Assembly: GCA_030706745.1 (NCBI GenBank)
Contig: JAUZNX010000014.1
Span: forward strand, 9,527-73,526
Length of the DNA: 64,000 nt
Direction of reading: 5' to 3'
Origin: Bacteroidota bacterium
GTDB lineage: Bacteria > Bacteroidota > Ignavibacteria > Palsa-1295
Part shown: positions 5,602-61,909 of the stretch, one piece after another
Layout of the letters: each line of letters starts with the position of its first letter
Position numbering within the stretch: the stretch's first letter is position 1
Position numbers and translations under genes: made by a program
Notes under the pieces: generated by a model
The model's input: only the letters and a program-made list of their open reading frames with translations
Told to the model about the DNA's origin: nothing
Databases searched by the model: none

Positions 5602-5606
5602 GCAAG

Positions 5607-7358: not shown

Positions 7359-7419
7359 AGATCTCTAACGGGTAAGGAATGATGAGTAACGAGTAACGAG
7401 TGAGAGGCCTCAGAAGTCC

Positions 7420-10187: not shown

Positions 10188-10192
10188 CGAAC

Positions 10193-10864
10193 ATGCGACG
10201 AAACATCAACATGGTAATCGGTGCCACAACCCACGCCGGATTTCTCGATCTGCCGGCAGGCCTACCAAAGGGCATCATTATCTTCGCACATGGCAGTGGC
10301 AGCAGCCGATTGAGCAAACGCAATCAATTCGTTGCTGAGACTCTCGTAAATGAAGGCTTTGCGACGCTGCTCTTCGATCTGCTAACTGAGGATGAGGATC
10401 AAACGTACGAGAACCGCTTCGATATTCCGTTGCTCGCGGCACGTCTCACTCAAACAGCAAAGTGGGTGATGCAACAAGACGATCTGCACGATCTTCCGAT
10501 CGGCTACTTTGGGGCAAGCACTGGTGCGGCGGCTGCACTTATTTCCGCCGCTAATAATCCGGAGCCCATCGGCGCGGTCGTCTCGCGTGGCGGTCGACCG
10601 GATCTCGCCCTCGAGAGCCTGCCGCGAGTGAAGGCACCAACGCTCCTCATCGTAGGCGGCAGGGACGAGCCGGTGATCGGGATGAATCAGGTCGCACTCC
10701 GGGCATTACAATGCGAGAAGAAACTCGTCACCATCCCCGGCGCGACACATCTCTTCGAAGAACCAGGGACCCTGGAACAAGTTGCGGGACTAGCGCAAGA
10801 CTGGTTCACCTCTTTCTTAACCCGGCAAATCAGCCACATGAGGGCCAAAACTTTTATTGCATGA
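10193..10864 (+). CDS. Dienelactone hydrolase-family alpha/beta hydrolase
   Basis: The motifs IIFAHGSGSS and the nucleophile elbow GASTG are present. It follows the PRTase in the conserved PRTase+DLH pair. Confidence 0.7.
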   Translation: MRRNINMVIGATTHAGFLDLPAGLPKGIIIFAHGSGSSRLSKRNQFVAETLVNEGFATLLFDLLTEDEDQTYENRFDIPLLAARLTQTAKWVMQQDDLHDLPIGYFGASTGAAAALISAANNPEPIGAVVSRGGRPDLALESLPRVKAPTLLIVGGRDEPVIGMNQVALRALQCEKKLVTIPGATHLFEEPGTLEQVAGLAQDWFTSFLTRQISHMRAKTFIA

Positions 10865-10892
10865 ATTAGCTGGCTCGTGCGTTTACTGTCCA

Positions 10893-12273: not shown

Positions 12274-12437
12274 GCGTTGAAAGTCCACCACCTCCCAGAG
12301 GCTGGCGCTTCTGAATTTCTGGCGCTTTTTGACAATTGCGGACGAAAAGTTTCGTATATTTACAGTCTGAACTATGCACATTTTCCGTGATGTGCGCGTG
12401 TTCTGAGGCCGCGACTTTTCAAAGTCCTTTAATTTCA

Positions 12438-17684: not shown

Positions 17685-17788
17685 TCTCACGCGAGAATCT
17701 ATTTTTGGTGTTATATTGCAGGGTATTAATGTGCTCGAAACTGACCGGTCACCAGCACAAGTCGTTCGATAATCGAAATTTCCACAAT

Positions 17789-30451: not shown

Positions 30452-30484
30452 GAACAACAACTCATCATACAAGGAATTATGAAC

Positions 30485-38549: not shown

Positions 38550-39374
38550 CTATGGCACCTTCGCGCCAATGACGGGCGACGGAGTTTGGTTGATTGCAGT
38601 AAGCACATACTGCTTGATGGCAGGATCGTAGTAGTCCCACCCTTCATAATAGGGCACGCCATACGCAACGACATATACTGAATCCCCAGACTGAAAGGTA
38701 GAGCCTAAGGGACTTACCATGTCCATTGGATACCCAAAAGTACTCTTAGCCGTATCGATATGACGCCCGTCAGGATCGTCATAGGTCGTATAATAATAGG
38801 CTGAATAGTGGCCCGGTACCGCCGATACGTCCGAAGTATGTGAAACATAGAGAACGACTGCGTCTTCCTTCTGGGGTCGCGCGGAATCCGGCAATATGTC
38901 TCCGGATGCGATGAGGTAACCGCCGCCAAGCCGATCGCTTACAGAGCGCAAGGTTACAACTTCATCAGAGTATTTGTACAGGATTGCGACGGTGTAGTCA
39001 CTATACCACTTGACGGTCGTTCCATCTGTATCCGTGACCACGATTGAAACCCATCGCACATCTCCATAACCAGGCTTAGAGAAGTGAGCCGTATACGTTC
39101 CGACTGGAACATTCCTGAATGTGAAGTAGCCACTGTCGTCAGTCACCGCGGAGAATGATGTTCCCTCGATCGTTGCAGTAACACCGCTAAACGGTGGAAG
39201 CTTTATACCCAATGCCTTTGCGAGGACGACCCGTCCGAGGATCGTTGCTGGCTTATGTGGTACAATGACAGGAGGATCGATTGGCGGCTGGGTACTGCTG
39301 CAGCCGGCCAAAACAAGAACTGCAGTAATGGTCAAGGCCCGCCGCCAAACACCAGATGTATGATTTCGACACAT
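38550..39374 (-). CDS. Lipoprotein with a carboxypeptidase-regulatory-like (CarbopepD_reg) domain
   Basis: The lipobox is VLVLAGCSS. The domain sequence is ILGRVV...TIEGTSFSAVTDDSGYFTFRNVPVGTYTAHF. Confidence 0.6.
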   Translation of the reverse strand: MCRNHTSGVWRRALTITAVLVLAGCSSTQPPIDPPVIVPHKPATILGRVVLAKALGIKLPPFSGVTATIEGTSFSAVTDDSGYFTFRNVPVGTYTAHFSKPGYGDVRWVSIVVTDTDGTTVKWYSDYTVAILYKYSDEVVTLRSVSDRLGGGYLIASGDILPDSARPQKEDAVVLYVSHTSDVSAVPGHYSAYYYTTYDDPDGRHIDTAKSTFGYPMDMVSPLGSTFQSGDSVYVVAYGVPYYEGWDYYDPAIKQYVLTAINQTPSPVIGAKVP

Positions 39375-39419: not shown

Positions 39420-40391
39420 TCACTGCTTGACAGCCGCCAGTTCCACTGTCGCCTTCTTCACCATCTCGTAAAGATAGATCTTCCCGCCATCACTGTAAAC
39501 CAGCATCGTTTCCTTCGGAGCGATGGCGAGTGGTCGCGCGGCGGCGGGCAGCGAGAGGTCCGTGTTCGTCGCTATATCATGCACGCGCCACTTGTCGCCG
39601 TCATCGAAGATTTGGTACTTGCCATTCGGTGAGTAATCGGTCCATGCGCTGGCACTCATCACTAAGTTTCCGGCGGGATCGAGTAAGGCGCCCATGAAGC
39701 TCCCGGTATTGCCCGGATCGCCAAGTCGCGTGCGTTCTGTCGATTCGATATCGTACAGCATCAGTGCGGCTCCGGGGTTGGGACGCGCAATCAAAATCTT
39801 CTTTTGATCGCGAGTCCAGGAGAGGACGCGCCAATTGCGATCATTAGGAAGGATCAGATCACTCGTGTATTGCTGGGTATCGTAGCGGTAGCAATCGACT
39901 TTGTCCTTGTGGACTTTGTTCGCCGTGTAATAGACGTAGCGGCCGTTATACGATAGACCTATGATCTCCGCGTTGGCGTCGCCGGACAAATCCTGCGGTT
40001 GATCGGAGCCATCATCTTTTTGTTTGTAGATGTGATAATCCTTGCCATTCTCACCAAGCCGCATAAATATGATTTCGGGCCGATTGGTCAGATGCACAAA
40101 GCGAACGATTGGACGATCGGTGAACTTGGTAACCTGCGTTGGCGTCATCCCCGGAGTCGCCGTGATACGGCTGTATTTATCGGCGATGACGAGGCTAAAA
40201 ACATTTCCACCTGAGAGATAGAAGACCCGTTTCTCGTCGTTCGAGAAGGTGGCGTCCCCCACGTTGCCAATACCATTTCTCGTGCTGGAATCAATGGCTG
40301 GCAGCGCATGCCAGAACTGCGCGTGCGCCGAGGAATCCGTGATTATAGAATAAAGCGCGAAGAGAGCGAAAATAATGATCGTGCGTTTCAT
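39420..40391 (-). CDS. Secreted beta-propeller-like hypothetical protein
   Basis: There is a signal peptide (MKRTIIIFALFALYSIITDSSAHAQ). Repeated YxxxGxxVYY / DGxxI motifs resemble TolB/PD40-type blades. Confidence 0.45.
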   Translation of the reverse strand: MKRTIIIFALFALYSIITDSSAHAQFWHALPAIDSSTRNGIGNVGDATFSNDEKRVFYLSGGNVFSLVIADKYSRITATPGMTPTQVTKFTDRPIVRFVHLTNRPEIIFMRLGENGKDYHIYKQKDDGSDQPQDLSGDANAEIIGLSYNGRYVYYTANKVHKDKVDCYRYDTQQYTSDLILPNDRNWRVLSWTRDQKKILIARPNPGAALMLYDIESTERTRLGDPGNTGSFMGALLDPAGNLVMSASAWTDYSPNGKYQIFDDGDKWRVHDIATNTDLSLPAAARPLAIAPKETMLVYSDGGKIYLYEMVKKATVELAAVKQ

Positions 40392-45408: not shown

Positions 45409-48003
45409 TTATCGATGAATTACCAGCATCCGACTGATCCGTAGTCTGCCGGTGTGCAATTCCACAAAGTAGACTCCTTGAGCGAGACTCGAAACGTCGA
45501 TCAATTTCTCGTTAGCCTGGAAATCTATTCTTCTCCCGAGCGCATCCCATACAGAAATGGATGCATCGGCATCTAACACACCCTTCGTTTCAATTTCCAT
45601 TCGATCTGACGCCGGATTCGGTCGAATTGAAAGCAATGGCATCTGCCCATAGTGAAGGTACGTCGTCAGCATGGAGGAAACACAAAACACTGGACCGGAA
45701 ATGTGCGAAGCAATCGCACTTTCTGATAATATAAGACAAGCTGCCGGTGTGACCTGAACCGAGTCAAAATACACGGTGTCTTGCCCCTGGACATTTGGAT
45801 ACCAACGGAACAGCGCATACACTGTGTCGGGGTTGTCACCATTGCGAGCGGCAACATGAATATGCGCGGAATTCAACCCGGTGGCATAGCTACCACTCAC
45901 CCACGTGCCATCGGACCAGACGACGGAATCAAATTCCATTATAGACGTATCGAATCGGATTCGAAAATCGATGGTCTTCAGCGCGTGATTGTGTTGGATT
46001 ATGATCGGCACCCTAACTGCTCCACCAATAGTATCTCCCATCGTAACATCGAGCGTACTCAGACTCACGATTGGTGCTGGCAATCCCTCACCTCGTAGTG
46101 GAATAGTGACCGAGGAGCCATCATCGTAGGTTACCAGCAATGATCCAATCGAAGCACCTGCCTGATTCGTCAGGAAGTGCAACGCAATCGAATCCAGGTC
46201 TTTGATCGTATCATAGACAAGCGTGTCGATCGTGTAATTTGCGGAGTTAGGACCGGAAATGGCAAGGGAGCGGATTTGTCGCAACGCACAAGCCCGGTCG
46301 ATAAAGAAATGCTGAAAGACCGGAGCATCGCAAGGGGAAAGAGTATCACGCGCAAACATCGTATCCGGCAATGGCAGGAGACGAGGCTGTAATGCTTTGC
46401 GTCCTATGCCAGCGAGCGGTATGCTGACGGTACTACCATCGTCATAGACCACTTGCAGCATGCCATGGGCCAATATCGAATCGTCGGAAGAGAATCGGAT
46501 GATAATCGAATCCGATCCTAACGATTCGACAAAGAACGATGTGTCAACTACGTAATTAGTCGAATTCGCTCCGGTGACGTGAATGGATTGGATCTGTCGC
46601 GAATCGCAAATACGGTCGATCCGCAACCCCTCGATCGCCGGGCCGCCACATGGGAAGACGCTATCGCGCTTGAAGATGGTATCCGAACTCGCGAAGAGGC
46701 GGGGCGCCCCGCGAGGAATGCAGAAGCCGCTTAGCGGCACGCTTAACGTCGTATCGCCGCTATAATGCAAGAGCAAACTGCCACTATCCTTCCCGGCGAC
46801 ACTTGGAATATATCGGATGTAGATCGAGTCGATCGCAGGCTCGCCACTGGTGTGGACCGCCGCAATTTGGTACGCGGAAGAATCACCTCCACCTCGTTGG
46901 ACAGACAGCAACGATACCGCTCCACAGGTCCTCGCAACTGCGATGGACCTCATGACTGTATCCCGGCAGAGTGAAACAGTATCGTCAGCGAATAGAGTAT
47001 CCGTATTGAGGAGAACGGGCACCGAGACGATTCTTGTCACCGGAAATTCGCCGTCGTTCGAAGTGCGCCACATGTTGCCAAACGAATCGATCACCAGCAA
47101 TATGCTATCAGCCACGACGGAAAGCGATTGATTATCCGGCGGACCCGTCGGTCCACCGATTGTAGTCCAAGTGATGCCGTGATCGGTCGAGCGGATGATC
47201 CCATCTTGCGTCTGAGTGTAGACTGCTGCTTTGGATGTGGCAATATTGCCACAATAATAATCGATACCATGCGGATTTTGCGATGTCCATGTCCAGCCAT
47301 TATCCCGGGATACAAAGATGGAGGTTACGGTATCGATCAAACCGAACTGTTGAATCTTCTCGTTGACCGCATACACAGTCGAGGCATCACAGGAATCGAG
47401 CGATAGTTGGTTGCAGTCGAGTTGAAGTGTGCCCCGCGCTTGCCACGTTGATCCGGCACCATCCGACACAACAATGGAGGAATTGTTCATATAATACACT
47501 GTACCATTTCGTGCGACAATAGGATCGATCGCATCGGCAACTGGCTGTTGCCTCGCAATCGTCCCGTTTATGTTTATCTCGATTGCGCCGCCCGAGCTGT
47601 AATAAATCGTATCCGCCGTCATGCCATAAGCCACCCATCGCTTGACAATTGATGGAAGCAGTTGCCAGGACGCACAGCCGTCACTGGTGACATACGCGCT
47701 GTATGGCGTGCTACCGGCTATCACGACCCCGTGGAGACGATCGAAGAAGGCAATCGCCGCAATGGTCGTTGGCGTTCCGGGAAAATAAATCTTCGACCAC
47801 GTAAGTCCAAGATCGCTGGAGCGCCAGAGAGAATTGCCACCGGCCCAGACAATACCGTCACTGAAATTGATCGCACATCCCTCCCTCGCGTTCATGGAAA
47901 GAAACGCGGGACCGGTCACACGCTGCCATTGCGCTTGCGAGGTTGACCCCAGTGCGGATAGCGGGAGCAGTACGAATAAGAACTTGAACGAGAATCGAAG
48001 CAT
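45409..48003 (-). CDS. Secreted BNR/Asp-box beta-propeller protein (sialidase / Ycf48-like) with Ig-like modules and a T9SS C-terminal sorting domain
   Basis: Asp-box motifs appear (SSDLGLTWS, TSDGCASWQ, SRDNGWTWT, STDHGITWT). The CTD is IRPNPASDRMEIET...LAQGVYFVELHTGRLRISRMLVIHR. Confidence 0.7.
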   Translation of the reverse strand: MLRFSFKFLFVLLPLSALGSTSQAQWQRVTGPAFLSMNAREGCAINFSDGIVWAGGNSLWRSSDLGLTWSKIYFPGTPTTIAAIAFFDRLHGVVIAGSTPYSAYVTSDGCASWQLLPSIVKRWVAYGMTADTIYYSSGGAIEININGTIARQQPVADAIDPIVARNGTVYYMNNSSIVVSDGAGSTWQARGTLQLDCNQLSLDSCDASTVYAVNEKIQQFGLIDTVTSIFVSRDNGWTWTSQNPHGIDYYCGNIATSKAAVYTQTQDGIIRSTDHGITWTTIGGPTGPPDNQSLSVVADSILLVIDSFGNMWRTSNDGEFPVTRIVSVPVLLNTDTLFADDTVSLCRDTVMRSIAVARTCGAVSLLSVQRGGGDSSAYQIAAVHTSGEPAIDSIYIRYIPSVAGKDSGSLLLHYSGDTTLSVPLSGFCIPRGAPRLFASSDTIFKRDSVFPCGGPAIEGLRIDRICDSRQIQSIHVTGANSTNYVVDTSFFVESLGSDSIIIRFSSDDSILAHGMLQVVYDDGSTVSIPLAGIGRKALQPRLLPLPDTMFARDTLSPCDAPVFQHFFIDRACALRQIRSLAISGPNSANYTIDTLVYDTIKDLDSIALHFLTNQAGASIGSLLVTYDDGSSVTIPLRGEGLPAPIVSLSTLDVTMGDTIGGAVRVPIIIQHNHALKTIDFRIRFDTSIMEFDSVVWSDGTWVSGSYATGLNSAHIHVAARNGDNPDTVYALFRWYPNVQGQDTVYFDSVQVTPAACLILSESAIASHISGPVFCVSSMLTTYLHYGQMPLLSIRPNPASDRMEIETKGVLDADASISVWDALGRRIDFQANEKLIDVSSLAQGVYFVELHTGRLRISRMLVIHR

Positions 48004-48107
48004 AGATCGCCTCTCAGTATGAGAGACAAATATAGTCAATTTCAAGCGCTTAGCCTCTCAAATTGCCAAAATGCAAGTGGCGGGGAGTTACCTCCATCGC
48101 TTTGCGA

Positions 48108-51100
48108 TTATCGCTCGATGATGAGCGTGCGGCCAGTCTGCCAAGCACCATGCTGAGCCTGCACATAATATAGGCCTGCAGGGAATTGAGAAACATCTAT
48201 CGTCCGCGCACTTCCCGCCATTCGCAACACATCGCGTCCCAGTGCATCCGAAATTCGAATTGCATCAATTGGCGCATTACTCGCGAGTTCGATGAGATGC
48301 GAGGCAGGGTTTGGCCGGATGAACAAATCCGGCATCACGCCGCGGCGCAACTGGCTGACCAGAAACGGTGACCAGCACGATACCGCCCCGCTCAACCGGG
48401 CATCCGTTTGCTGATTCGATTCAACAATACAACCAGGAATTGTGGCCGTGGTGGTTATGGTGTCGAGCATGACCCTGGCGCCACCACTATCGGCGGGATA
48501 CCAGTCAAAAAGAGCATAAAGCACTGTCACCAAATCGGTCTCGTCGGATGTGAAGTCGACCGTAACGCGCAAGTCTGTTGCCGAGCGCAGCGTGAATGTT
48601 GGCGGAGGGCTTCCGGGTTTCGCCATCTGAAGACCCAGGAAGGCAAGCTGCGCGGTATCGAAATGAAGATCGAATGCCAAAGCCGCGAGAGGCGGGCCGT
48701 GATGAATGGTAATCGGAATATAGACCGTGCCGCCTATCGTATCGTCAGTAATATCGGATAGCGAAACCGAAGCTGGGGCCACCTCGCGGCCCTCCCCAGC
48801 GAGTGCAACCGTTACGCTCGCACCATCCGCATAGGTGAATACGAGACTTGCATTCGAAGGGCCGGCACTATCTGGAAGGAATATGAGCCGGACAGAATCC
48901 AGCCCGTGCAGCGAATCGCGGATGACGCCGGAAATACGATAGTTCGACGTATCTTTTCCAATGATCTTGACAGATGCAAGCTGCTGCTTATTACAGCTAA
49001 CATGCACCCAACAGCTATCCGGGACCGGCTCCTCACACGGATACATCTTCGCAGTGGAGAACAATGTGCTGCGTGAGCTCGCCAATACAGGCGGGGAAAG
49101 CTGAATGGCGGACCCACCGAGGGGTACTTGCACGCTCGCGCCATCGTCATAGCGGACCGTAAGCAGCGCATGGGATGGGCCGATTGTCGAATCCCAGAAG
49201 GATAAGCGGATTGTGTCGTAAAGCCGGATGCTGTCGCGACCAAAGCAACAGATTTTGTAATTAGCAGAGTCGACACCTTCGATCATACGGGACTTTACCG
49301 CTCGGCCTCGGCAGCCCTCATCGATTACAACAAAAGTATCGAGCGGCGCGTCGCAATAACTCACGCGCGCGGTTGAAAACAACGTGACGGGATTGAGCGC
49401 ATGTGGCAATGGGCCAGGTATGCCCAAGCCCGCCAATGGGATCGCTATGGTCGAATCATCATATTCGACGACGAGCTTACCGGCGGAACCGCCTGGCTGG
49501 GCGACAGTAAATCCAACAACGATCGTGTCGAGCTCCGCGCTAAAATTATGGTTGATACTTAAGATGTGATAATTCGCGGAATCCCTACCCGCGACTTGGA
49601 TCGATCTCATTATTCGGTCGCATACCGCCAATATGATGATCGTATCTGAAACTGGTTTATCGCAGGGGGTGAGCGTTGTGCCAGAAAAAAGGCTGTCCCG
49701 AGGCGCCAGCAATTCGATCGGCGGTGACTGGATGGTACGGCCTGCCAAAGCAAGCGTAATATTCGTACCATCGCCATAGAGAATTTCAAGGCTAGCAGCA
49801 TTCAAGCGAACAGCCCCCTGCCTAAAACGGAGCGTGATGGAGTCGAGAAACCTCTCGGTATCCCGCACCATGCTGAGGATTTGATAGTCTTTGGAATCGA
49901 GCCCCAGAATGCGGACCGATCGCAGGCTATCCTGCGGGCAAAAATATGCGATGACAATGGTACTGTCAAGCGGAACGGAACACGAATCGAGTCTTGCCCC
50001 TTGAAAGAGTGGATGACCATCTCCAAGGAGTGCGGGAGACGGCGCTGTTAGGACCTGCGACCGAAGCGGGACGATAATATGTGTACTATCATCATACGTG
50101 AGCAGAACGGTATCGACATAATAGCCGGGTCCGGTCGGCGAAAACTGGACTGCAAAAGTATCGAGCGCCGATGTCGAATCATAGACCAGGCTCTTGATTG
50201 AATAGAGAGCCGCATTTAAGCCCGCAATCCTCCAGCCGACAATATGAGGACCCATACATGTATGGCCGATGACGAATCCGCGCGTAAACGGCCCTTCACA
50301 TTCCGGTAGTGCTTGATTGGCAAACAGTGGGGTTGGAGTCAGTAAAGTGGGAGCGCCATAGTAGGGAGTTCCAATACCATCTGTTTTGCGCCACATCTTG
50401 CCGTCTTCATCCGCAACGAGCAAAACGGTATCGCCGGCAATAGCGATAAGTCGCTGGTCCGGCTGACCCGCCGGGCCGCCGATATTTTGCCAGGTCTGAC
50501 CTTTGTTGATCGAGCGAATGATACCTGCGTTAGTCTGGGTATAGATCGCCGTTCTGGATGATGCCGCGTTGCCACAATAGTATCCGGTATGGGTGGCAGC
50601 ATTGACGCGATGGGAATTCACCGCCTGCCAGGTAGCACCAAGATCGTGTGTAACGTACATTGCCGCGATGCTATCGGTTGGCCAGTAAAGAGCCTCATTG
50701 ACCAGATAGATCGTACCAGCATCACACGAATCAAAGGCCCAGGAATGACAATCGTAATCTGCGACCCCGGTTTGAGGTCCCCATGTCAGACCGGCATCAG
50801 ATGAAAGAAAGATGCGACTGTTATCTTTGTAGTAAAAAATGCCATCGCGAGAAGAAATCGGCTCGCGTTCCGAACTTGCAGATGAAAAGGACCAGGTTTT
50901 GCCTTGATCCGTGGTTCGTTGCACGCCCTGGTAAGTGGTAACGACAATTGTGTCGGCTGTCACGCCGAAGGCGGCGTCATCCACATTAGTCGAGCGCAAA
51001 ATATTCGTCCACCTGGTACCTTGATCGGTCGTCAGATAGAGTCCGCCCAGATCGACCATACATACAACACCGACCGAATCATCGAAGAATGAAATGTTAT

Positions 51101-51368
51101 AGACTCTGCCTGAGGGGCAGGAGGTCCGGGCCCATGTCAGCCCTAAATCTTGTGACTTCCAGACGTCACTCGCACCAGCCCAGACGATCCCCTGCTTATA
51201 AGTCATAGCGCCGCCGGCGAAAGAACTTGGCGATCGAAATAGCGGAGTAGCAGTCACCCGCTGCCACTGGGCGTGGATCGGCACTGCGAAAAAGAGCATA
51301 CTCAGCCCGAACGCGCACACGACAAGTGCGAACGCTCTCGGACTCACAGGAAGGGAACCTCGCTCCAT
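48108..51368 (-). CDS. Secreted BNR/Asp-box beta-propeller protein with repeated Cys-containing Ig-like modules and a T9SS CTD, a paralogue of the upstream gene
   Basis: Asp-box motifs appear (SQDLGLTWA, TTDQGTRW, TTDQGKTWS, SSDAGLTWG, SINKGQTWQ). The CTD is IRPNPASHLIEL...FPAGLYYVQAQHGAWQTGRTLIIER. Confidence 0.7.
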   Translation of the reverse strand: MERGSLPVSPRAFALVVCAFGLSMLFFAVPIHAQWQRVTATPLFRSPSSFAGGAMTYKQGIVWAGASDVWKSQDLGLTWARTSCPSGRVYNISFFDDSVGVVCMVDLGGLYLTTDQGTRWTNILRSTNVDDAAFGVTADTIVVTTYQGVQRTTDQGKTWSFSSASSEREPISSRDGIFYYKDNSRIFLSSDAGLTWGPQTGVADYDCHSWAFDSCDAGTIYLVNEALYWPTDSIAAMYVTHDLGATWQAVNSHRVNAATHTGYYCGNAASSRTAIYTQTNAGIIRSINKGQTWQNIGGPAGQPDQRLIAIAGDTVLLVADEDGKMWRKTDGIGTPYYGAPTLLTPTPLFANQALPECEGPFTRGFVIGHTCMGPHIVGWRIAGLNAALYSIKSLVYDSTSALDTFAVQFSPTGPGYYVDTVLLTYDDSTHIIVPLRSQVLTAPSPALLGDGHPLFQGARLDSCSVPLDSTIVIAYFCPQDSLRSVRILGLDSKDYQILSMVRDTERFLDSITLRFRQGAVRLNAASLEILYGDGTNITLALAGRTIQSPPIELLAPRDSLFSGTTLTPCDKPVSDTIIILAVCDRIMRSIQVAGRDSANYHILSINHNFSAELDTIVVGFTVAQPGGSAGKLVVEYDDSTIAIPLAGLGIPGPLPHALNPVTLFSTARVSYCDAPLDTFVVIDEGCRGRAVKSRMIEGVDSANYKICCFGRDSIRLYDTIRLSFWDSTIGPSHALLTVRYDDGASVQVPLGGSAIQLSPPVLASSRSTLFSTAKMYPCEEPVPDSCWVHVSCNKQQLASVKIIGKDTSNYRISGVIRDSLHGLDSVRLIFLPDSAGPSNASLVFTYADGASVTVALAGEGREVAPASVSLSDITDDTIGGTVYIPITIHHGPPLAALAFDLHFDTAQLAFLGLQMAKPGSPPPTFTLRSATDLRVTVDFTSDETDLVTVLYALFDWYPADSGGARVMLDTITTTATIPGCIVESNQQTDARLSGAVSCWSPFLVSQLRRGVMPDLFIRPNPASHLIELASNAPIDAIRISDALGRDVLRMAGSARTIDVSQFPAGLYYVQAQHGAWQTGRTLIIER

Positions 51369-51521: not shown

Positions 51522-54263
51522 CTATCTCTCGATCACAAGCTGCTTCGAAGTGCGGAAGGGCTGGCCAGCCAAGTCCACACCTGTCACGCGGACAATGTAA
51601 GCGCCATTCGGAAGCGAAGTCCCCGCTGCATCACGGGTATCCCAATTGAAGGACGTATTCCCATGCAATGTTTCGAGTACGTTACCGAGCATATCGAATA
51701 TCTCGACATTTGCGCTCCGCGCCTGATCGAGTTGAATCGCGACACGATCCGACGTTGGGTTTGGCATAATCGCGAGGTTGATCGTAGCCGGGTCGATCGT
51801 TTCTATCACCCCGGCCGCGGCCGCGGCGACGGACTGAAGTTGGAAGGTCTGCGGCTGAATCGATTGGTTCGTCGCAACAAACATGGGGTCTGTCGCTGTC
51901 GCGCCAGATGGCGGATCGTTGCAGACCTGCACCATCGCCGGCAATGAGCTTCCAGGCGTGATCGTGACCGGAAAACTGCTCGCGTTCATAAGAGTGAAGT
52001 TCGTACTCTGTCCCAGAATGACCTGGTTCACTACGATCGAAGCCGATGTTGTATTGACGAGCATGATCGTATCGATCACGCAGGCATTCCCGGTGTTATT
52101 TACGATACCGATGACTTTCGTCCCATTACCGGTCAGACCGGCACCGAGATCGATGTCCGATGTGTCACGATTCCCCAGCATTCCTGGTACAGCGACACCT
52201 TCGACATGAACAGTGATCGGTCCACAAGTCATCGCCGAGCCTGTCGCGTTCAATGTTATGTCCGCTCCGAAACTTGATCGGTCCGTGCCAGTAGTTGGAT
52301 TGAATGCAACCATAAGTTGAGCTGTCCCACCCGATTGAATGGTGATCGGGAGCGAGCTCGAAACCGAAAAAGCCGAGCTGCCAGAACCGCTGATGGAAGC
52401 TCCATTAATGGTGACGCTCCCATTAGTCCGGTTGGTCAGGAAAATCGCGGATGTATCAGTCCCACCTCTCAGAATAGGTCCGATCACGCCAGACTCATGA
52501 CGCACGAAGATGCAGTTCGTAAGTTCACCATTATTATGCAGACTATCTATTGCATTTGCGTCAATACTGATAGTGATCCTGCTCGGTCCGGTTGTACCGG
52601 TCGCAAAGAGCTCAAGCGTCGCACTCTGATTTTCCATTGCGACGGTAGGACTGAAGCATACGTTGACAAACGCCGTTGAATGCGCAGCCACTTGCAGCAT
52701 TGACGCACCGCTGACGGTAAATGACGATGCACTCGAGCCAGTGATCGCTGCGCTATCGATTGTGACTACTGAAGCTGTTGGATTCGAGATACGAACCGCC
52801 TGGCAGTCAGTTGTACCGACCAGCACGTTGTTGAACTCAATGTTCTGAGTCGTGAGGAAGAATATCGAATCCCCAAGATCGAGACGCCCTTCGACCGATC
52901 CGTTCAACTCCACTCTCTCGGTCCCTTTCAAAGTGGTATCCGTCACGCCGGCAAATTGGAACGTCAACGTGGCATGTTGCTCGCCGCTCGCAGTCGTTGG
53001 CGTGTAACAGACCGTTACGCTCGCCGAGGAATCAGCGGCCACCTGAAGTGAACCGCTTCCTGTGAGTCGGAAGTCATTTGAATCTCCGGTGATCGTCAAG
53101 TTCGAGATAGTGACCGCACCGGTCGTGTTATTCTTGATCGAAACCGGCAGGCATTCCGTCTGTCCAGCCTTGGTCTCGAATTCGATCTCATCGGCAACGC
53201 GAAGCGAACCTTCCACCGAAAGCATCGCATGACCGATCAATGACACCGTGGCAGTATCGCCCGTCAGTGACCGCACCAGCAAGGATCCATTCGCCGTACC
53301 GGCAGTGCTCGATTTGAAAATAATCGGTACCGTCGTGCTACCGTTGGCCAGAACAGTAACGTTCGTCAGATTCACGCTGAATGCGCTACTCCCGGAAGGT
53401 ACCAGCGCTAAGGATAAGAGATTGGCCGTTTGATTGGCAATTGTCAACATCTGGGTATCCGGAACGTCAACCTTGGTATTAAATACCAGCGACCCTGCAG
53501 GGGTCAGCAAGAATGAGACGCGCGCCAGCGAATGTCCAACGAGTGAAATACGCTGCGTATCGCCCGAAGAAGAAATCGCTGTGAGCGTTGCACTGTCGTA
53601 ACCGGAAACAAGCGGAGAAAATGAGACCACCGTTGAGGACGAGCCATCGCCGGCAATCGTCAGGGAATTCGGATTGACCGAAAAGAGCGCCGCTCCACTT
53701 CCAGAAAGAGCCAAGGATACTGTCGTCGCCGAAGCGCTCCGATTGCTGATGTTCAATGTGTCGGCCGTGCTACTGCTGACATGAGAAACGAGTGTTAACA
53801 GGCCAGCGGGCGTGATTTGGAGCATGCCGCCTGCCGAGATTGCATGTCCCATAAGAAGCACACTCGCCGAGTCAAGCGCGGAGGATACCACGTTCAGTTT
53901 GGCCGTATCCAACCCCGCGACGATCGGTGAGAACGTGATAGTCGCACTCTGCGACATATATGCGCCGATTGTCATATAGGACGACGACGTCGTAAAGAGC
54001 GCCGCACCGCTACCAGAATAGGCAAGCGTTAGCGCGAGCGAATATGCTGTATTGTTTTGAATGGTTATAGTCTTTGTTGCGGTCGCCCCAGTTTGCGCCG
54101 TGAAATCAATCTCGCTCGATGGTGAGAGCGAAAAGGATGTTGCTGCATTGGCCGCATCTGATAGCATCATCCCAGTTAAGACTAGAAGTGCCGTATTTGT
54201 GAATAAGAGAAGAGTCTTGCATTTTGTAATAATACCCATAGACTTCATAGAAAAAAGTGGCAA
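51522..54263 (-). CDS. Secreted protein made of ~8 tandem ~95-aa ASH/choice-of-anchor-D-like (PapD-like beta-sandwich) modules plus a T9SS CTD
   Basis: Repeats of type ITI.N.S..S..L.L.GSGAALFS...TI.A..S..V.V.FSP...G...A.L are present. The CTD is MPNPTSDRVAIQL...LPNGAYIVRVTGVDLAGQPFRTSKQLVIER. Confidence 0.65.
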   Translation of the reverse strand: MPLFSMKSMGIITKCKTLLLFTNTALLVLTGMMLSDAANAATSFSLSPSSEIDFTAQTGATATKTITIQNNTAYSLALTLAYSGSGAALFTTSSSYMTIGAYMSQSATITFSPIVAGLDTAKLNVVSSALDSASVLLMGHAISAGGMLQITPAGLLTLVSHVSSSTADTLNISNRSASATTVSLALSGSGAALFSVNPNSLTIAGDGSSSTVVSFSPLVSGYDSATLTAISSSGDTQRISLVGHSLARVSFLLTPAGSLVFNTKVDVPDTQMLTIANQTANLLSLALVPSGSSAFSVNLTNVTVLANGSTTVPIIFKSSTAGTANGSLLVRSLTGDTATVSLIGHAMLSVEGSLRVADEIEFETKAGQTECLPVSIKNNTTGAVTISNLTITGDSNDFRLTGSGSLQVAADSSASVTVCYTPTTASGEQHATLTFQFAGVTDTTLKGTERVELNGSVEGRLDLGDSIFFLTTQNIEFNNVLVGTTDCQAVRISNPTASVVTIDSAAITGSSASSFTVSGASMLQVAAHSTAFVNVCFSPTVAMENQSATLELFATGTTGPSRITISIDANAIDSLHNNGELTNCIFVRHESGVIGPILRGGTDTSAIFLTNRTNGSVTINGASISGSGSSAFSVSSSLPITIQSGGTAQLMVAFNPTTGTDRSSFGADITLNATGSAMTCGPITVHVEGVAVPGMLGNRDTSDIDLGAGLTGNGTKVIGIVNNTGNACVIDTIMLVNTTSASIVVNQVILGQSTNFTLMNASSFPVTITPGSSLPAMVQVCNDPPSGATATDPMFVATNQSIQPQTFQLQSVAAAAAGVIETIDPATINLAIMPNPTSDRVAIQLDQARSANVEIFDMLGNVLETLHGNTSFNWDTRDAAGTSLPNGAYIVRVTGVDLAGQPFRTSKQLVIER

Positions 54264-57009: not shown

Positions 57010-57651
57010 TTACTTTGCGTACCCGACTGACTGCGCAAACAAGACGTGCTGTCCGGGATGCAATCCGAGGCTCTGTTCAAGACCCTTGCGATCGCAGTTG
57101 TGGAACCAGGCCGCGAGCCCATGCGATGCGGCATAGAGATAAACGTTGCCCGCGATGAGACCGGTCGTCACATAGCAGTATGCATTCTGCATGTCAGGAT
57201 CGAGCAGCCCTGGCTCCTGAAATCCCGGCGTGTGAGTCAGGCGATCAATGTCTGCAACGTAGATCAGTTGGACGGGAGCGTTCGCCTGAATGCCGCGTTG
57301 TCCCGGGGTCATAACACCGGCTCGCAAGTCGCCCTCAATAATGGGTTTCAAGAGATTGTGAACCGCATCGTAGAGATACACGCCATCCTCGAACGCCACG
57401 TAAAGATCGACTTCCTGCGAGTTGCTGGCTGAAGCAGCCGTCCGTCCATAAACGCCGAACGGACCGGTGACGCGGTTCACCCCCCAGGCAGCCCACAAGA
57501 GATTTGAAATCATCTGAATTGGTAAGGGCGACGAACTGATTAGCCGTATCGTTTCTCGCCGCCGGAGAGCCTCGAACACCGAAAGGCCTCCTTCATCCAC
57601 AGGCGCCGGAAGTTGAATCTCTGTCAAAGTCTGGGTTAATATGTCACTCAT
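57010..57651 (-). CDS. Nitroreductase-family (SagB-type dehydrogenase-like) protein
   Basis: RRETIRLISSSPLPIQMISNLLWAAWGVNR plus a C-terminal nitroreductase-fold pattern are present. The start is chosen at MSDILTQ. Confidence 0.55.
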   Translation of the reverse strand: MSDILTQTLTEIQLPAPVDEGGLSVFEALRRRETIRLISSSPLPIQMISNLLWAAWGVNRVTGPFGVYGRTAASASNSQEVDLYVAFEDGVYLYDAVHNLLKPIIEGDLRAGVMTPGQRGIQANAPVQLIYVADIDRLTHTPGFQEPGLLDPDMQNAYCYVTTGLIAGNVYLYAASHGLAAWFHNCDRKGLEQSLGLHPGQHVLFAQSVGYAK

Positions 57652-58204
57652 GGTCGAGATATGAGAATTCTGTAAATAGGTGAGATGAAGCTGCTGATGC
57701 ACAGTGGAAGAAACATGCCATCCTACGGTTAGCAGTGAATTCGGCGTAGCGGGTGCAGAATGCCATCGTTTCAATAGTGCCGAATGTTAAAATAGTTATT
57801 GACAGGCGTTAGATACTGTTCGCAAACGCTTCGCACGAATTCTTCCGGATGCTCTGATCGGCGGCTTGAGAGTCCGCAACCCGCGAAGGCCCCACAAAAG
57901 CAGGCGGCTGCATTGATTACTTGAGGAGGACAAGTGACGTTATTCAACCTTTTCTGCGCGTCTGCCGCGTGGAAATCGTCATAGGAACATGAAAAAGTTT
58001 ACGATCCCTTACTCATGAGTCGTTAATTTTCTTCTCTTTCGTAAAGATTACTAACGACCCTTTGAAATCTTTCTCGAATGGATTCAACGATTTGCACTTG
58101 GATTCGCGGATTGCTGCCTCAAAACCCCGGTTGGCATAGAGAATGCCATCTCAACTGAGTTCGATGTTGCGACTTTAGTCAAGTTCTCCGTCAGTTTTAC
58201 GTCC

Positions 58205-58990
58205 ATGACCTACCGAATCAATCAGTACCGCGAAGTTGTGATAGTGGCGTTGCTTGCTATTCTATTTTGTGGAGACAGCCCGTCTCCCGGCGTGCTGACT
58301 CTTAGACCAATGCTTGCGCCAACTGGCAGCATTCGTGGACGTGTCACATTCAACGGTCCGCTTCCCCAGCTCGCCACAGCAAAGTGCATCACTCCGGAAG
58401 TATGTGGAAGAACTCACACCTATGATCGTCTGCTTGTAGGCAAGGACAAAGGCGTTCGGTATTCGTTGATCTATCTTAAGAACCCACCCCTCGGCCGCAC
58501 CTCACCAGGGCAGCCGCGGATCACCCAATCGAATTGCTCGTTCCAGCCGCATATGATTGTCGCTGCACGTGGCTCCTCGATCATCTTTCAAAACGACGAT
58601 CCTGTTCTGCACAATTGCCACGCATATAGCTTCATCGGTTCGGACCGCTCCACTGCATTCAATATCGCCCAACCGACGAAAGGCCAGCAAAGCGTCGAGC
58701 AACTCCGGAAGCCCGGCATGCTCAATATCGAGTGTGATGCGGGACATACTTGGATGTCCGCATGGGTCTGGGTTACCGATAGTCCGTTCGCCGTTGTATC
58801 CGATGAGCATGGGGAATTCAGTCTGGATGGTATCCCACCCGGCACCTATACTGTCGTGATGTGGCATGAGGGCTGGAACACGAGCGGCATGCAGGATGGT
58901 CGCGCTGTCTTCTCTGCGCCTACACTTCAGGAGCGTCAGATCGTCGTTACCGCTGGAGGCGCATCGAATGCCGACTTCCTATTACAATAA
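58205..58990 (+). CDS. Secreted type-1 copper (cupredoxin-like) protein with a C-terminal carboxypeptidase-regulatory-like domain
   Basis: There is a signal peptide. The ligand-like pattern is His in DPVLHNCHAY and Cys/His/Met in IECDAGHTWMSAW (C-x3-H-x2-M). Confidence 0.55.
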   Translation: MTYRINQYREVVIVALLAILFCGDSPSPGVLTLRPMLAPTGSIRGRVTFNGPLPQLATAKCITPEVCGRTHTYDRLLVGKDKGVRYSLIYLKNPPLGRTSPGQPRITQSNCSFQPHMIVAARGSSIIFQNDDPVLHNCHAYSFIGSDRSTAFNIAQPTKGQQSVEQLRKPGMLNIECDAGHTWMSAWVWVTDSPFAVVSDEHGEFSLDGIPPGTYTVVMWHEGWNTSGMQDGRAVFSAPTLQERQIVVTAGGASNADFLLQ

Positions 58991-59014
58991 GATCTCGTTA
59001 CACTAAGAACTCGC

Positions 59015-60340
59015 ATGGTGCAAACAACCACAGGGCGGGCGTATATTCTTATCGCTTCCGGCTTCGTACTTCTGTACTCGATCATCGGACCATCAAAGGT
59101 TCATGCTAATCCCGTCTTCGCCCGGCAATACAATACATCGTGCTTTACATGTCATACCTCGCCACCATTGCTCAACGAGTTTGGTCGTCGCTTCCAGGCG
59201 AATGGCTATCAATTGCCAAGTACGAGCGATAAGATTGCAGAAGCCGCACGGTCCACATTCCCACTCGGTCTCGTGGTAACACCGATGGTGAGTCGCTCTC
59301 AGGTCGAGGACCATTTGACTGGAATACAAAGCGAACCAACCACATCTTTCGGCGGAATCATGATGCGGTTTTTCAGCTCCGCTTCGCTCGGATCTCACTT
59401 TTCCTATTATGCCGGCATACCCGTCACCGTGGCAAATGGCGAGACGAGCATTGAGATTGAAACCATCCATCTGCTCTATACCGATGCGCTCGCCGATGGC
59501 CGGGGCACGCTGAATTTCCAGTTCGGCAAGTTTCTTCTATTCGCCCCGTTCACGCCCATGTTCCTGCTCTCCGGAGAGGATCCCATCGTGTACAATAGCA
59601 TGCATTACAACCCGCTTGGCGAGCGAACGACGGCCAACACGCTCTATCTAACCGACCCCATGTTTGGCGTCAGCGCGTTTGGCACAATTTACACCATCGG
59701 TCAAGGACTTCGCTGGCAAGTTGGAATGGTCGGCGGAAACAATAGCGATGTGGATCTGGCTTCAGCGCGCGCCGTGTTCGGCTCGCTCGATCAAACTGTG
59801 TTCCTGCAAAACGCGCCTGCCAGAGTTGGGGCATTCTTTTTCTCAGGATTTCAGGATGTATCGAATTCTGCGGCGGAAACATCGAGCACCATGGCCGGAA
59901 TGCCGGGGATGGGTGGTGGAACAAGTGCCGCACTGGCGAATCCCTGGCGGAATCACGTCACACGAGTGGGATTCGATGCGGAAATCACGGACCCATGGAC
60001 AAAGCGGATCAACCTCTTTGGCGAGTTCATGACAGGACTCGACGATAACATCGATAGCCTGGGAACAAGCTATGAAATGCGCGGCGGGTTCGTCGGCATG
60101 AACGTTATTCTCTTGCCAGAAAAGCTCTTTGCGTACGGCCGGTACGATTGGATGCAGCGACTCACGGTTGCCGAAGATCACACGGCAATCGACGTAGGAC
60201 TGCGATATCACTTTCTTCCGAATGTAGTAGCGACTGGCGGCGTGACAATCACGAAAGAGAATATCACACAGACGGCGTATCAAATGCGGCTCGATCAGAC
60301 GACAACGACGTACCGCGCTGGTTTCTTATTTGGATTCTAA
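59015..60340 (+). CDS. Cyc2-like fused monoheme cytochrome c / outer-membrane beta-barrel porin (candidate Fe(II) oxidase / EET conduit)
   Basis: The signal peptide is followed directly by NPVFARQYNTSCFTCHTSPP (a single CxxCH). About 390 aa of predicted beta-rich sequence then ends in the OMP beta-signal ...YRAGFLFGF. Confidence 0.6.
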   Translation: MVQTTTGRAYILIASGFVLLYSIIGPSKVHANPVFARQYNTSCFTCHTSPPLLNEFGRRFQANGYQLPSTSDKIAEAARSTFPLGLVVTPMVSRSQVEDHLTGIQSEPTTSFGGIMMRFFSSASLGSHFSYYAGIPVTVANGETSIEIETIHLLYTDALADGRGTLNFQFGKFLLFAPFTPMFLLSGEDPIVYNSMHYNPLGERTTANTLYLTDPMFGVSAFGTIYTIGQGLRWQVGMVGGNNSDVDLASARAVFGSLDQTVFLQNAPARVGAFFFSGFQDVSNSAAETSSTMAGMPGMGGGTSAALANPWRNHVTRVGFDAEITDPWTKRINLFGEFMTGLDDNIDSLGTSYEMRGGFVGMNVILLPEKLFAYGRYDWMQRLTVAEDHTAIDVGLRYHFLPNVVATGGVTITKENITQTAYQMRLDQTTTTYRAGFLFGF

Positions 60341-61124
60341 TCCGAACAGCATGTTGCTTCAAACTATAACTACTACCTGCGCGGTCGGCATTATTGCGGC
60401 CACGATGAAGCTAAGTCCATTCGGACTCGGTCCGGCAAGCAACGCTCCGGCCTCCAATCCGTCCGAGACGATCGCTCGTGGCAAGACTGTGTTCGACATT
60501 GCCTGTTCGCCCTGTCACGGCCTCGATGGTGCAGGCGATGGTCCGCTGTCGGCCAACATGCGCACGAGACCGAGAGACCTCACAAAAGGGGTCTATAAGA
60601 GCCGATCGACCGCCAGCGGTCAGTTGCCAACAGACGAGGATCTGGATCGATCGATCATGACCGGCGTGCACTTTAGCACGATGCCAGCCTTTCGCATGTC
60701 CCCGACCGATTGTGACGCCGTCATTCAGTACCTGAAGACTCTCTCTCCGCGCTTCTCGGATTCTACTGAGTATCCGCTGGAAGTGTTGACATTCGGCCAA
60801 ATGATCCTCCCCAGCACGCAAAGCATCGAACGAGGCCGCGCGGTCTACGTCAAGATGCAGTGCGAAAGCTGTCACGGAGCTGCCGGCAAGGGCGATGGAG
60901 TCTCTGCTGAAATCCAACACGATGACTTCGGCAGTTTCGTCCACACAACGGACCTCACGAACGTTTCCGATTTCAAATTCGCACAGTCTGCCCAAGACGT
61001 CTATCGCATTTTTTCGACCGGTCTGAACGGCGTTGCCATGCCATCCTATGCCTCGACGCTCCCAGACACCGACCGCTGGCACCTTGCCAACTACGTATGG
61101 AACCTGCACGGCATCGAGCATTAA
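60330..61124 (+). CDS. Dihaem c-type cytochrome (c4/Cyc1-like)
   Basis: Two CxxCH motifs are present (CSPCHG, CESCHG), with candidate distal Met ligands (...TMPAF; ...AMPSY). It overlaps the upstream gene by 11 nt. Confidence 0.75.
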   Translation: MDSNPNSMLLQTITTTCAVGIIAATMKLSPFGLGPASNAPASNPSETIARGKTVFDIACSPCHGLDGAGDGPLSANMRTRPRDLTKGVYKSRSTASGQLPTDEDLDRSIMTGVHFSTMPAFRMSPTDCDAVIQYLKTLSPRFSDSTEYPLEVLTFGQMILPSTQSIERGRAVYVKMQCESCHGAAGKGDGVSAEIQHDDFGSFVHTTDLTNVSDFKFAQSAQDVYRIFSTGLNGVAMPSYASTLPDTDRWHLANYVWNLHGIEH

Positions 61125-61192
61125 GTGCAGCATTCTGAAATTTTGTTCGTAGATTTGCATTAAGTTGGTTTTTTGGATTTAGAGATCATCTT

Positions 61193-61909
61193 ATGAAAAC
61201 AGTTTCCTTCTCCCTGTCGATTCTGTGTCTAGGCATCTTGATTGGTTGCAGTAGCAGCACAACTCCGCAACCACAAACGTATATCGGTGCTTCAACAACC
61301 ATTGGCTCCGGCACCGCCAATTCCTGGGTCACCGTGGATGGCTCCGGCAACATGACGGCCATCGGTGTGACCATTTCCGATGCAGCGCTCGCCAGCTTGC
61401 CCGCGATGGGCATGATGTATGAGATCCCTATGCCGGCCGGTGTGACCACAATCCCGTATAAAAGTATCAGCCTTGACTATGCTACGATGGATCCAGCTCC
61501 CTACAATGTGCCACATCTCGACGCCCATTTCTATTTTGAAGATATGATGGCACGAATGAATATCATGCAAGGGATAGATACAATGATGCCAGGCGGAATG
61601 ATGCTGCCGGCAGGATACACTCGCATCGGTGAATGTGATTCGATGATGGGCGTGCATTATATGGACACCTCGGCTCCAGAGTGGCACAAGCAGCCATTCC
61701 ATTGCGCCTTCGTTTACGGCTTTGCCAAAGGCACGATGACGTTTATGGAAGCGATGTGTGACCAAGCATCCCTGTCCAACCATACGGCGCTCAGTGGAAC
61801 AGTCAAACCCATGATGATGATGAGCATGCCAATGTCGATGCCCAAAACCTACAAGACCTCATACGACGCCACGACCAAGACGACTAAGATTGAACTAGAC
61901 GGATTTTGA
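61193..61909 (+). CDS. Met-rich lipoprotein (putative periplasmic Cu(I)-binding / metallochaperone-like)
   Basis: The lipobox is ILIGCSS. Met-rich clusters are present (MMYEIPMP, DMMARMNIMQGIDTMMPGGMMLP, KPMMMMSMPMSMP). Confidence 0.55.
   Translation: MKTVSFSLSILCLGILIGCSSSTTPQPQTYIGASTTIGSGTANSWVTVDGSGNMTAIGVTISDAALASLPAMGMMYEIPMPAGVTTIPYKSISLDYATMDPAPYNVPHLDAHFYFEDMMARMNIMQGIDTMMPGGMMLPAGYTRIGECDSMMGVHYMDTSAPEWHKQPFHCAFVYGFAKGTMTFMEAMCDQASLSNHTALSGTVKPMMMMSMPMSMPKTYKTSYDATTKTTKIELDGF

Follow-up and report, generated by a model that had tools for sequence, protein, structure and literature searches.

We analysed a 64,000-nucleotide stretch of contig JAUZNX010000014.1 (GenBank assembly GCA_030706745.1, Bacteroidota bacterium; hereafter the window) and found in it a four-gene operon which, on balance, we read as a Cyc2-type electron conduit from the outer membrane to the periplasm and which, we infer, serves Fe(II) oxidation. 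In order, the genes encode a predicted copper protein with a transthyretin-like (TTR) domain (open reading frame 1, ORF1; cupredoxin-TTR), a predicted Cyc2-family cytochrome-porin (ORF2), a predicted dihaem cytochrome c (ORF3) and a putative methionine-rich lipoprotein (ORF4). An earlier note on the window had proposed such a conduit. A path from Fe(II) to an oxidase is supported because, in relatives of the locus, the first three genes (the trio) lie directly beside genes for cbb3 and aa3 oxidases and for Rieske and cytochrome b proteins.

All four ORFs are on the + strand, point in the same direction and are closely spaced, as the earlier note had described, and the same four genes are annotated in the public contig record GCA_030706365.1 JAUZOP010000015.1 (77.6 kb). 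A protein with exactly the sequence of ORF2 occurs in a public metagenome-assembled genome (MAG) labelled 'Bacteroidota bacterium'. The host is Kapabacteria-like and belongs to the Bacteroidota/Ignavibacteriota lineage, since the closest relative of the locus is a 'Candidatus Kapaibacterium' MAG (locus L008; 73% identity for ORF2 and 88% for the nearby aconitase) and type IX sorting domains are abundant in the window.

Assignment of ORF2 to the Cyc2 family

In the available text of Keffer et al. 2021 (PMC8406198), Cyc2 proteins are recognised by a signal peptide, a single CXXCH motif with AXPXFAR[Q/K][T/Y] upstream and PXL downstream, a length of at least 365 residues and a 16-strand porin resembling OprO/OprP; the upstream motif is described there as unique to Cyc2. 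ORF2 (59015..60340, + strand) encodes 441 residues. A signal peptide is predicted by inspection at residues 1–31 (59015..59107, + strand), with R8, a hydrophobic core at 10–24 and VHA before a cut between ...SKVHA and NP; the structure model has a helix at residues 7–23, within this segment. The Cyc2 signature is found at 59105..59173 (+ strand) as A31-N-P-V-F-A-R-Q-Y39, C43-F-T-C-H47 (haem attachment, 59141-59155) and P51-L-L53. The protein contains one CxxCH only, C43FTCH47, in ...HANPVFARQYNTSCFTCH.... It lies 12 residues past the predicted cleavage site and is invariant in 44/44 aligned relatives, so that neither of two earlier doubts, that the motif might fall inside the cleaved signal or be absent from orthologues, was borne out. 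In the same alignment P33, F35, C43, C46, H47 and L53 were invariant and A36, K/Q38, Y39 and P51 nearly so, and the signature was seen at all 80 related loci that were readable.

The rest of the protein is predicted to form a 16-strand outer-membrane beta-barrel (residues 85–441; 59267..60337, + strand) that ends at the aromatic F441 of the C-terminal GFLFGF. The best structural match of the model was OprP, and an OprP-type template has also been reported for Cyc2 (PMC8406198, available text). The earlier note's beta-barrel and its GFLFGF end are thus retained, and so is the 16-strand prediction that it had named as a check, but the barrel covers about residues 85–441 rather than some 390 residues. 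Because every sequence criterion of Keffer et al. is found in ORF2, we place it in the Cyc2 family as a fused monohaem cytochrome-porin, its haem loading and outer-membrane location being predictions. The cytochrome-porin proposed by the earlier note is thereby upheld in motif, single haem site, length and barrel.

No Pfam or NCBIfam model matched ORF2, and no solved structure was related to it by sequence. A profile of its clade aligned over the full length with a profile of Chlorobia proteins carrying the Cyc2 motif (hhalign; probability 99.7%, E 9e-27), and a search of the ORF2 profile against 1.84 billion representatives returned 4007 relatives at E≤1e-3 and 1798 at E≤1e-10. Ten clusters sampled among the distant matches were metagenome proteins, one of them from a 'Pseudomonadota bacterium'. 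Cyc2 homologs in Ignavibacteriales MAGs are already known from surveys, and ORF2 taken alone is therefore a further member of a known family. A second Cyc2-family protein (P0024; Q8922_00135, 423 residues), 47% identical to ORF2, is encoded on a 510-kb contig; it probably comes from the same MAG, because both carry the NCBI locus-tag prefix Q8922.

ORF1 and ORF3 as candidate electron carriers

ORF1 (58205..58990, + strand, 261 residues) has an N-terminal hydrophobic anchor or signal, a cupredoxin domain at about residues 100–187 and a transthyretin-like/CarboxypepD_reg domain at about residues 188–260. The predicted copper ligands are encoded within 58610..58756 (+ strand): His136 (58610-58612), Cys177 (58733-58735), His181 (58745-58747) and Met184 (58754-58756), in the motifs HN (136–137) and C177-x3-H181-x2-M184. 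These four residues were invariant in 27/27 ORF1 relatives, down to 28% identity, in which the loop from Cys to Met reads C-x3-H-x2-M or C-x2-H-x2-M. A C-x2/3-H-x2-M loop was likewise present in 50/50 neighbouring ORF1 homologs examined.

When the ORF1 family profile was compared with PDB sequences, type-1 copper (T1Cu) domains were matched with their ligand columns aligned (9cck, 5.8e-8; 5fc9, 3.9e-6; amicyanin, about 1e-3). The AlphaFold2 model of ORF1 had a predicted local distance difference test score (pLDDT) of 89, and fold comparison identified the Greek-key beta-sandwich of a cupredoxin. In Pfam, ORF1 matched the C-terminal CarboxypepD_reg alone, below threshold, with no match to Copper-bind (PF00127) or Cupredoxin_1 at E≤1; a Chlorobia homolog reached 25.5 bits against PF00127, for a cutoff of 21.2, and several JGI (Joint Genome Institute) records call ORF1 homologs 'plastocyanin'. 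The combination of a cupredoxin with a transthyretin-like domain was found in no solved protein. Together, these results identify ORF1, at the level of sequence and model, as a fusion of a type-1 (blue) copper cupredoxin with a transthyretin-like domain. The secreted blue-copper protein of the earlier note therefore stands as regards its HN...C-x3-H-x2-M pattern, invariant ligands and fold, but the protein is not a plain cupredoxin, given its C-terminal transthyretin-like domain. Rusticyanin was considered and rejected as its counterpart: it was neither among the ORF1 profile matches nor among the 50-60 best fold matches listed, and ORF1 has the extra domain. The N-terminus is a hydrophobic anchor in the window's clade and a cleavable signal peptide in Kryptoniota relatives; with either, the protein would face the periplasm.

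ORF3 (60351..61124, + strand) encodes 257 residues from an ATG, within a longest ORF that opens at TTG 60330. Its start is most likely the ATG at 60351, because the NCBI call agrees and homology with relatives begins there. The spacing between ORF2 and ORF3 is therefore +10 bp, and of the earlier description the tight packing remains while the 11-bp overlap of these two genes does not. Two haem motifs are present, CSPCH (60504-60518) and CESCH (60861-60875), preceded by an N-terminal hydrophobic segment and a linker, and Pfam Cytochrom_C and Cytochrome_CBB3 each matched two stretches. The entire mature protein matched chain B of PDB entry 6h5l (E 9e-49), the HAO-like complex of Kuenenia stuttgartiensis, a chain which we take to be the dihaem redox partner of that complex. 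The other PDB matches at E≤1e-3 were two cytochrome subunits of alternative complex III and one subunit of an actinobacterial bc1 complex. No c4/Cyc1 structure was matched in this PDB sequence search at E≤1e-3, so ORF3 is taken as a dihaem cytochrome but not as a Cyc1 orthologue. Its N-terminal domain matched the NCBIfam model for cytochrome 579 weakly (42.6 bits, far under the cutoff of 280). ORF3 is thus a predicted periplasm-facing dihaem class-I cytochrome c, in agreement with the dihaem c-type cytochrome recognised earlier.

Conservation of the trio and its respiratory neighbours

A neighbourhood survey in which one genome per species was scanned yielded 80 loci. The order ORF1-ORF2-ORF3 was found in about 20 independent genomes at 32–56% protein identity, across Kapabacteria, Ignavibacteriota and Kryptoniota and with intergenic distances from -3 to about 200 bp. 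The clade of the window (Kapaibacterium, Ignavibacteriota and Kryptoniota; 31–51% identity) has an ORF3-like gene directly 3' of the Cyc2 gene at every assessable locus, and an ORF1-like gene directly 5' of it in 20 of the 29 assessable loci. The arrangement of the trio is not due to chance, because its order recurs in so many independent genomes at such identities. It is accordingly hardly credible that the four genes are accidental neighbours that do not work together. The flanking genes (aconitase, nitroreductase and O-antigen ligase) are indeed unrelated and are rearranged in the closest relative, and ORF4 is rarely linked; against this stand the retention of the trio's order down to 32% identity in three lineages and the lack of terminator-like sites between the operon genes.

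The genes that adjoin the trio in relatives are respiratory. In L001/L014, L009/L011, L015 and L021 the trio is directly followed by a cluster for a cbb3 oxidase, comprising CcoNO, Q, P, G, S and the CcoI ATPase. Genes for an aa3 oxidase, SCO1 and haem O synthase lie directly upstream of the trio in L003/L026 and L023, and Rieske and cytochrome b genes upstream of it in L012-L016.

The last of these arrangements also bears on the direction of electron flow. Were the conduit to run outwards, quinol would reduce the Rieske/cytochrome b complex, and electrons would pass through the periplasmic carriers and ORF2 to an acceptor dissolved outside the cell, for instance chelated Fe(III), Mn(III) or humics. 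[quoted passage not shown] We nevertheless regard it as improbable: all biochemically tested Cyc2 proteins are Fe(II) oxidases in the available text of PMC8406198, a monohaem centre near +200 mV is ill-suited to the reduction of Fe(III) minerals, and the adjoining genes encode terminal oxidases, not multihaem outer-surface reductases.

Two of the loci surveyed contain further genes of related kinds. In L001 (1843-5584; same genome as L014), a second Cyc2-family gene, of 466 residues and containing ...MPNFARKYSLGCSSCH..., precedes genes for a cytochrome c, a Rieske protein and a cytochrome b-cytochrome c fusion; a few kb beyond these lie the trio and a complete cbb3 cluster, so that the whole forms a near-complete respiratory 'supercluster'. 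In L007 a gene of the VIT1 family (iron sequestration/export; 10768-11484) lies on the opposite strand directly after the Cyc2 cluster; next come genes for a sigma-54 two-component pair, HemN and a protein of the hemerythrin/ScdA type.

Proposed electron path

Our preferred reading is that electrons move inwards. In the outer membrane, the haem of ORF2 would take an electron from dissolved Fe(II), and ORF2 would hand it to the copper protein, to the dihaem cytochrome or to both; in the window's clade an N-terminal helix and a linker seem to hold ORF1 and ORF3 at the inner membrane. The next acceptor would be a cbb3 or aa3 cytochrome c oxidase, its genes lying elsewhere in the genome, and some electrons might be driven uphill by way of a Rieske/cytochrome b complex. 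The cell probably gains additional energy or rids itself of toxic Fe(II), and obligate lithotrophy is less likely, because Ignavibacteriales are described as heterotrophs with Cyc2 genes detected by FeGenie.

The same hardware might instead serve another purpose, surface oxidation of Fe(II) that keeps both Fe(II) itself and Fenton chemistry out of the periplasm or acts in redox sensing, with little energy gained. We consider this unlikely, although several features suit it: the lineage is mostly heterotrophic, Ignavibacteriales being described as obligate heterotrophs that yet carry Cyc2 genes; the VIT1 gene for iron export or sequestration adjoins the cluster in L007; and the operon in the window is not linked to an oxidase. 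The tight linkage to cbb3 or aa3 genes and to Rieske/cytochrome b genes in many relatives indicates integration into a respiratory chain, and protection and energy are purposes that do not exclude each other.

Several observations weigh against the inward Fe(II)-oxidising conduit that we favour. The cytochrome domain of the ORF2 model is weak, with pLDDT of 42–65 at residues 28–80. The Chlorobia sequences used in the profile comparison may differ from the published cluster-1 cyc2, and according to Keffer et al. (PMC8406198, available text) function is least certain for the more divergent Cyc2 clusters. An ORF1-like gene is missing from the closest relative, L008, and likewise from nine loci of the clade, mostly of the Kryptonium type, so the copper protein is dispensable; two distant ORF1 homologs, moreover, have no adjoining Cyc2 gene. 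Lastly, neither an oxidase nor a bc complex is encoded in the visible 77.6-kb contig region. The earlier note had likewise seen no terminal oxidase in the window, and we found no terminal oxidase (COX/Cco) genes there or in the 6.5 kb past its end.

Cyc2 is the main genetic marker from which microbial iron oxidation is inferred, and the steps from the outer membrane to the oxidase are poorly defined beyond a few Proteobacteria. The locus and its roughly 30 relatives define a compact three-gene module in lineages that are not regarded as iron oxidisers (Kapabacteria, Ignavibacteriota, Kryptoniota), and the respiratory neighbours of the relatives give a concrete, testable electron path. They also nominate as periplasmic carrier a family of copper proteins whose genes reappear next to distant Cyc2-like genes in several further phyla. 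Were it confirmed, the path would lead to more organisms being credited with iron oxidation in soils, permafrost and groundwater, and would supply a second marker gene to sharpen predictions based on Cyc2.

ORF4 and copper

ORF4 (61193..61909, + strand, 238 residues) has a lipobox, LIGC (Cys19), and contains 28 Met residues, the mature protein being 12% Met. It matched Pfam TTHB210-like (PF18197) over residues 49–96 with 33.8 bits, above the cutoff of 26.6, and NCBI names an identical protein DUF5602 domain-containing. Only 11 homologs were found. H108, D110, H112, H155 and M188 are invariant in the family, and the Met clusters are kept in close relatives only.

The gene stands beside the trio in two of about 30 loci of the clade, and the other Cyc2 loci examined lack it except L091. 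There (1019-11718), the trio is followed by the ORF4 homolog, an HMA-domain protein and a CusC/CusB(+CusF)/CusA-like efflux pump; in L093 (5471-8723) the gene for an ORF4 homolog and that for a P1B-type metal ATPase are divergently arranged. These neighbours suggest a link between the DUF5602 family and copper homeostasis. ORF4 as a core component of the conduit was rejected, the gene being absent from all but one related locus. Because its relatives adjoin copper-efflux genes and the other Cyc2 loci lack it, we read ORF4 as a copper-handling protein, probably an accessory rather than part of the core. The product is most likely a periplasmic Cu(I)-binding lipoprotein that would supply copper to ORF1 or give protection, and not an electron-transfer protein. 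Of the earlier description, the Met-rich lipoprotein (LIGC, 12% Met, relatives near copper-efflux genes) was confirmed, whereas its place as a conserved member of the cluster was not.

These findings raise the possibility that the whole operon handles copper, with the cupredoxin, the Met-rich lipoprotein and the porin acting on Cu(I)/Cu(II), for example by oxidation of Cu(I) or by trafficking across the outer membrane, and not on iron. The efflux genes beside the ORF4 relatives (an HMA protein and a CusCBA-like pump in L091, a P1B ATPase in L093), the 12% Met of ORF4 and the CcoI-type Cu-ATPase that follows the cluster in several relatives would fit. Yet the CcoI-type ATPase belongs to the cbb3 assembly genes that follow, ORF4 accompanies the trio in only two of about 30 clade loci, the His/Cys/His/Met set makes an electron-transfer site and not a trafficking site, and ORF2 bears the haem signature specific to Cyc2 (PMC8406198, available text). 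A copper-handling operon is therefore very improbable, and the Fe(II)-oxidising conduit remains the reading that we prefer.

Cupredoxin-TTR genes beside distant Cyc2-like genes

ORF1-like genes with an intact copper loop also adjoin far more distant genes with the Cyc2 motif (L044, L047-L050, L052, L055, L056, L059, L061-L066, L070, L071 and L073). At 11 loci from Ignavibacteriota, 'Deltaproteobacteria', Thermodesulfobacteriota and Acidobacteriota the cupredoxin-TTR gene lies directly downstream (6–180 bp); at L059, the twelfth locus of this sequence group, it lies just upstream instead. Single loci of Myxococcota, Fibrobacterota and Bryobacterales have the gene downstream too. The encoded cupredoxin-TTR proteins are about 200 residues long with the loop CN[VI]HP[ED]M, and their partner Cyc2-motif proteins are about 17–21% identical to ORF2. 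The order of the cupredoxin gene follows the Cyc2 sequence cluster.

In Chlorobia the cupredoxin-TTR gene was found about 6.1–8.2 kb downstream of the Cyc2-motif gene at 11/11 assessable loci. In Chlorobium sp. L227-S-6D (L068, 9920-18408) the Cyc2-motif gene heads a same-strand cluster that continues with genes for a Rieske protein, a 2x[4Fe-4S] ferredoxin, cytochrome b (N and C parts), an 873-residue multihaem cytochrome c, a monohaem cytochrome c, cupredoxin-TTR and a cytochrome c. This cupredoxin-TTR scored above the Pfam thresholds for both Copper-bind and CarboxypepD_reg. The same layout is present in L053, L058, L076, L081 and L084-L089, and the Rieske/cytochrome b/multihaem set recurs in loci of Ignavibacteriota, 'Delta' and Bryobacterales.

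The association is not exclusive. A reverse test, starting from the cupredoxin family, found two distant homologs elsewhere, one after a monohaem cytochrome c lipoprotein gene and one alone, and exclusivity for Cyc2 was rejected. In L095 (7357-8831) the gene for an ORF1 homolog, itself a lipoprotein with the loop CEAGHPWM, has a 4-bp overlap with the end of that for a 215-residue monohaem cytochrome c lipoprotein, and no Cyc2 gene is nearby; this is a cytochrome-cupredoxin pair outside a Cyc2 setting. A full-text literature search returned no paper pairing Cyc2 with this copper protein, the library searched being incomplete and its silence absence of evidence only.

We tentatively raise the idea, without regarding it as the likelier outcome, that cupredoxin-TTR might be a widespread, dedicated periplasmic partner of Cyc2-type iron oxidases. 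Were this so, electron carriage by copper would not be peculiar to acidophiles with their rusticyanin but would be common in neutrophilic and anoxygenic-phototroph lineages, and cupredoxin-TTR would fill the 'unknown periplasmic carrier' slot of current pathway models.

Flanking regions and other features of the window

The contig record places the nitroreductase gene upstream of ORF1 at 57010-57651 (213 residues), which is more likely than the earlier limits. The divergent intergenic region between this gene, on the - strand, and ORF1 is therefore about 553 bp long (57652..58204, from the gene limits). The nitroreductase and the gene-free leader that the earlier note had described upstream of the operon were thus recovered, but not the length of 430 bp, and the searches of the leader gave no recognisable regulatory element. 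The operon promoter presumably lies in this region. Rfam gave no match in it at E≤1, and a scan for sigma-70-like and terminator-like sites placed none within 57652..58204 and none 5' of ORF1; the scan, which was not designed for this lineage, counted nine sigma-70-like sites in total against 5.3 +/- 2.1 in shuffles, with no enrichment of terminator-like sites. GC (guanine plus cytosine) content and third-position GC of the four genes are in line with those of neighbouring genes.

The aconitase and the nitroreductase were confirmed as neighbours of the operon. As functional parts of it they were rejected, since the closest relative keeps them in synteny yet rearranged, and other loci lack them. 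That relative (L008, 1404-10424; Candidatus Kapaibacterium sp. Chersky) keeps the aconitase, Cyc2, dihaem cytochrome and nitroreductase genes and lacks ORF1 and ORF4. Its nitroreductase gene lies downstream, not upstream, and its cyc2 is preceded by two unannotated genes (254 and 344 residues) and a 725-bp gap.

Elsewhere in the window, C-terminal sorting domains for type IX secretion are present in six large proteins that are predicted to be secreted (12336-14510, 17528-21076, 30479-33214, 45409-48045, 48108-51368 and 51522-54263). An ice-binding-like domain is present in that at 30479-33214, BNR/sortilin repeats in two of the set and ASH/Cep192-type Ig repeats in one. On the - strand, 38550-39374 encodes a CarboxypepD_reg-domain protein of 274 residues with no Pfam cupredoxin match, at a position unrelated to the operon. 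A full-length HPr kinase/phosphorylase gene, with strong Pfam matches for both domains, lies at 10857-11933. Four ORFs of 323–558 residues (24948-26624, 33478-34773, 39420-40391 and 16509-17798) had no Pfam match at E≤1e-3 (1e-4 for 16509-17798).

Comparison with known systems

In the neutrophilic pathway, as presented in the available text of Keffer 2021 (PMC8406198) and McAllister 2020, Cyc2 takes electrons from Fe(II) and hands them to a periplasmic dihaem cytochrome or other carrier, from which they pass to a cbb3 or aa3 oxidase or uphill via complex III. The parts encoded by the operon agree with this scheme, the copper protein being an extra carrier or a substitute one. For Cyc2 of Mariprofundus PV-1 a potential of about +208 mV is given (PMC8406198, available text). 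Common to the locus and the Cyc2 pathway of PV-1 and the Gallionellaceae are a fused monohaem cytochrome-porin that has this N-terminal signature and an OprP-like barrel of 16 strands, a dihaem cytochrome c alongside and, in the window's relatives, adjoining cbb3/aa3 and Rieske/cytochrome b genes. It differs in that the host is Kapabacteria-like and not a proteobacterium, that the dihaem cytochrome is of the Kuenenia 6h5l-B type and not Cyc1/c4, and that the operon includes a type-1 copper protein with a transthyretin-like domain; the available text of Keffer 2021 (PMC8406198) and McAllister 2020 makes no mention of a copper carrier for neutrophiles.

The rus operon of A. ferrooxidans (cyc2, cyc1, coxBACD, rus) is alike in logic, since Cyc2, a dihaem cytochrome and a blue-copper protein are encoded together. 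It feeds a cytochrome c oxidase encoded within the operon, whereas the operon described here contains no oxidase genes. The components are not orthologous, the copper gene stands first here, and ORF1 has the extra transthyretin-like domain. The parallel to the rus operon that the earlier note had drawn thus holds for function but not for orthology, the copper protein not being rusticyanin nor the dihaem cytochrome Cyc1. The sole A. ferrooxidans cupredoxin that ORF1 matched was AcoP, with modest scores. The Leptospirillum pair Cyt572/Cyt579 likewise combines an outer-membrane Cyc2-family cytochrome with a periplasmic c-type cytochrome, Cyt572 being a Cyc2 homolog placed in Cluster 3 by Keffer et al. 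(PMC8406198, available text); it differs in belonging to an acidophile, and a copper protein is not described for the pair.

Chlorobium cyc2 encodes a Cyc2-family protein from the same broad Bacteroidota/Chlorobi lineage, with profile homology over the full length, but identity to ORF2 is only about 18% for the Chlorobia proteins that were retrieved, and the electron sink there would be the photosystem. According to Tsuji et al., a c5 cytochrome stands beside every cyc2; Chlorobium cyc2 with its c5-family neighbour is a marker of photoferrotrophy. L068 has no c5 cytochrome directly upstream, and the identification of the retrieved sequences with the published photoferrotroph cyc2 was rejected; these loci may be a second Chlorobia type.

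MtoAB, PioAB and MtrAB resemble the locus as outer-membrane electron conduits that pair a barrel with c-type haem. Among known Cyc2 systems, the trio is, as far as its sequences tell, a distinct variant that combines Cyc2 with a cupredoxin-TTR fusion and a dihaem cytochrome of the 6h5l-B type.

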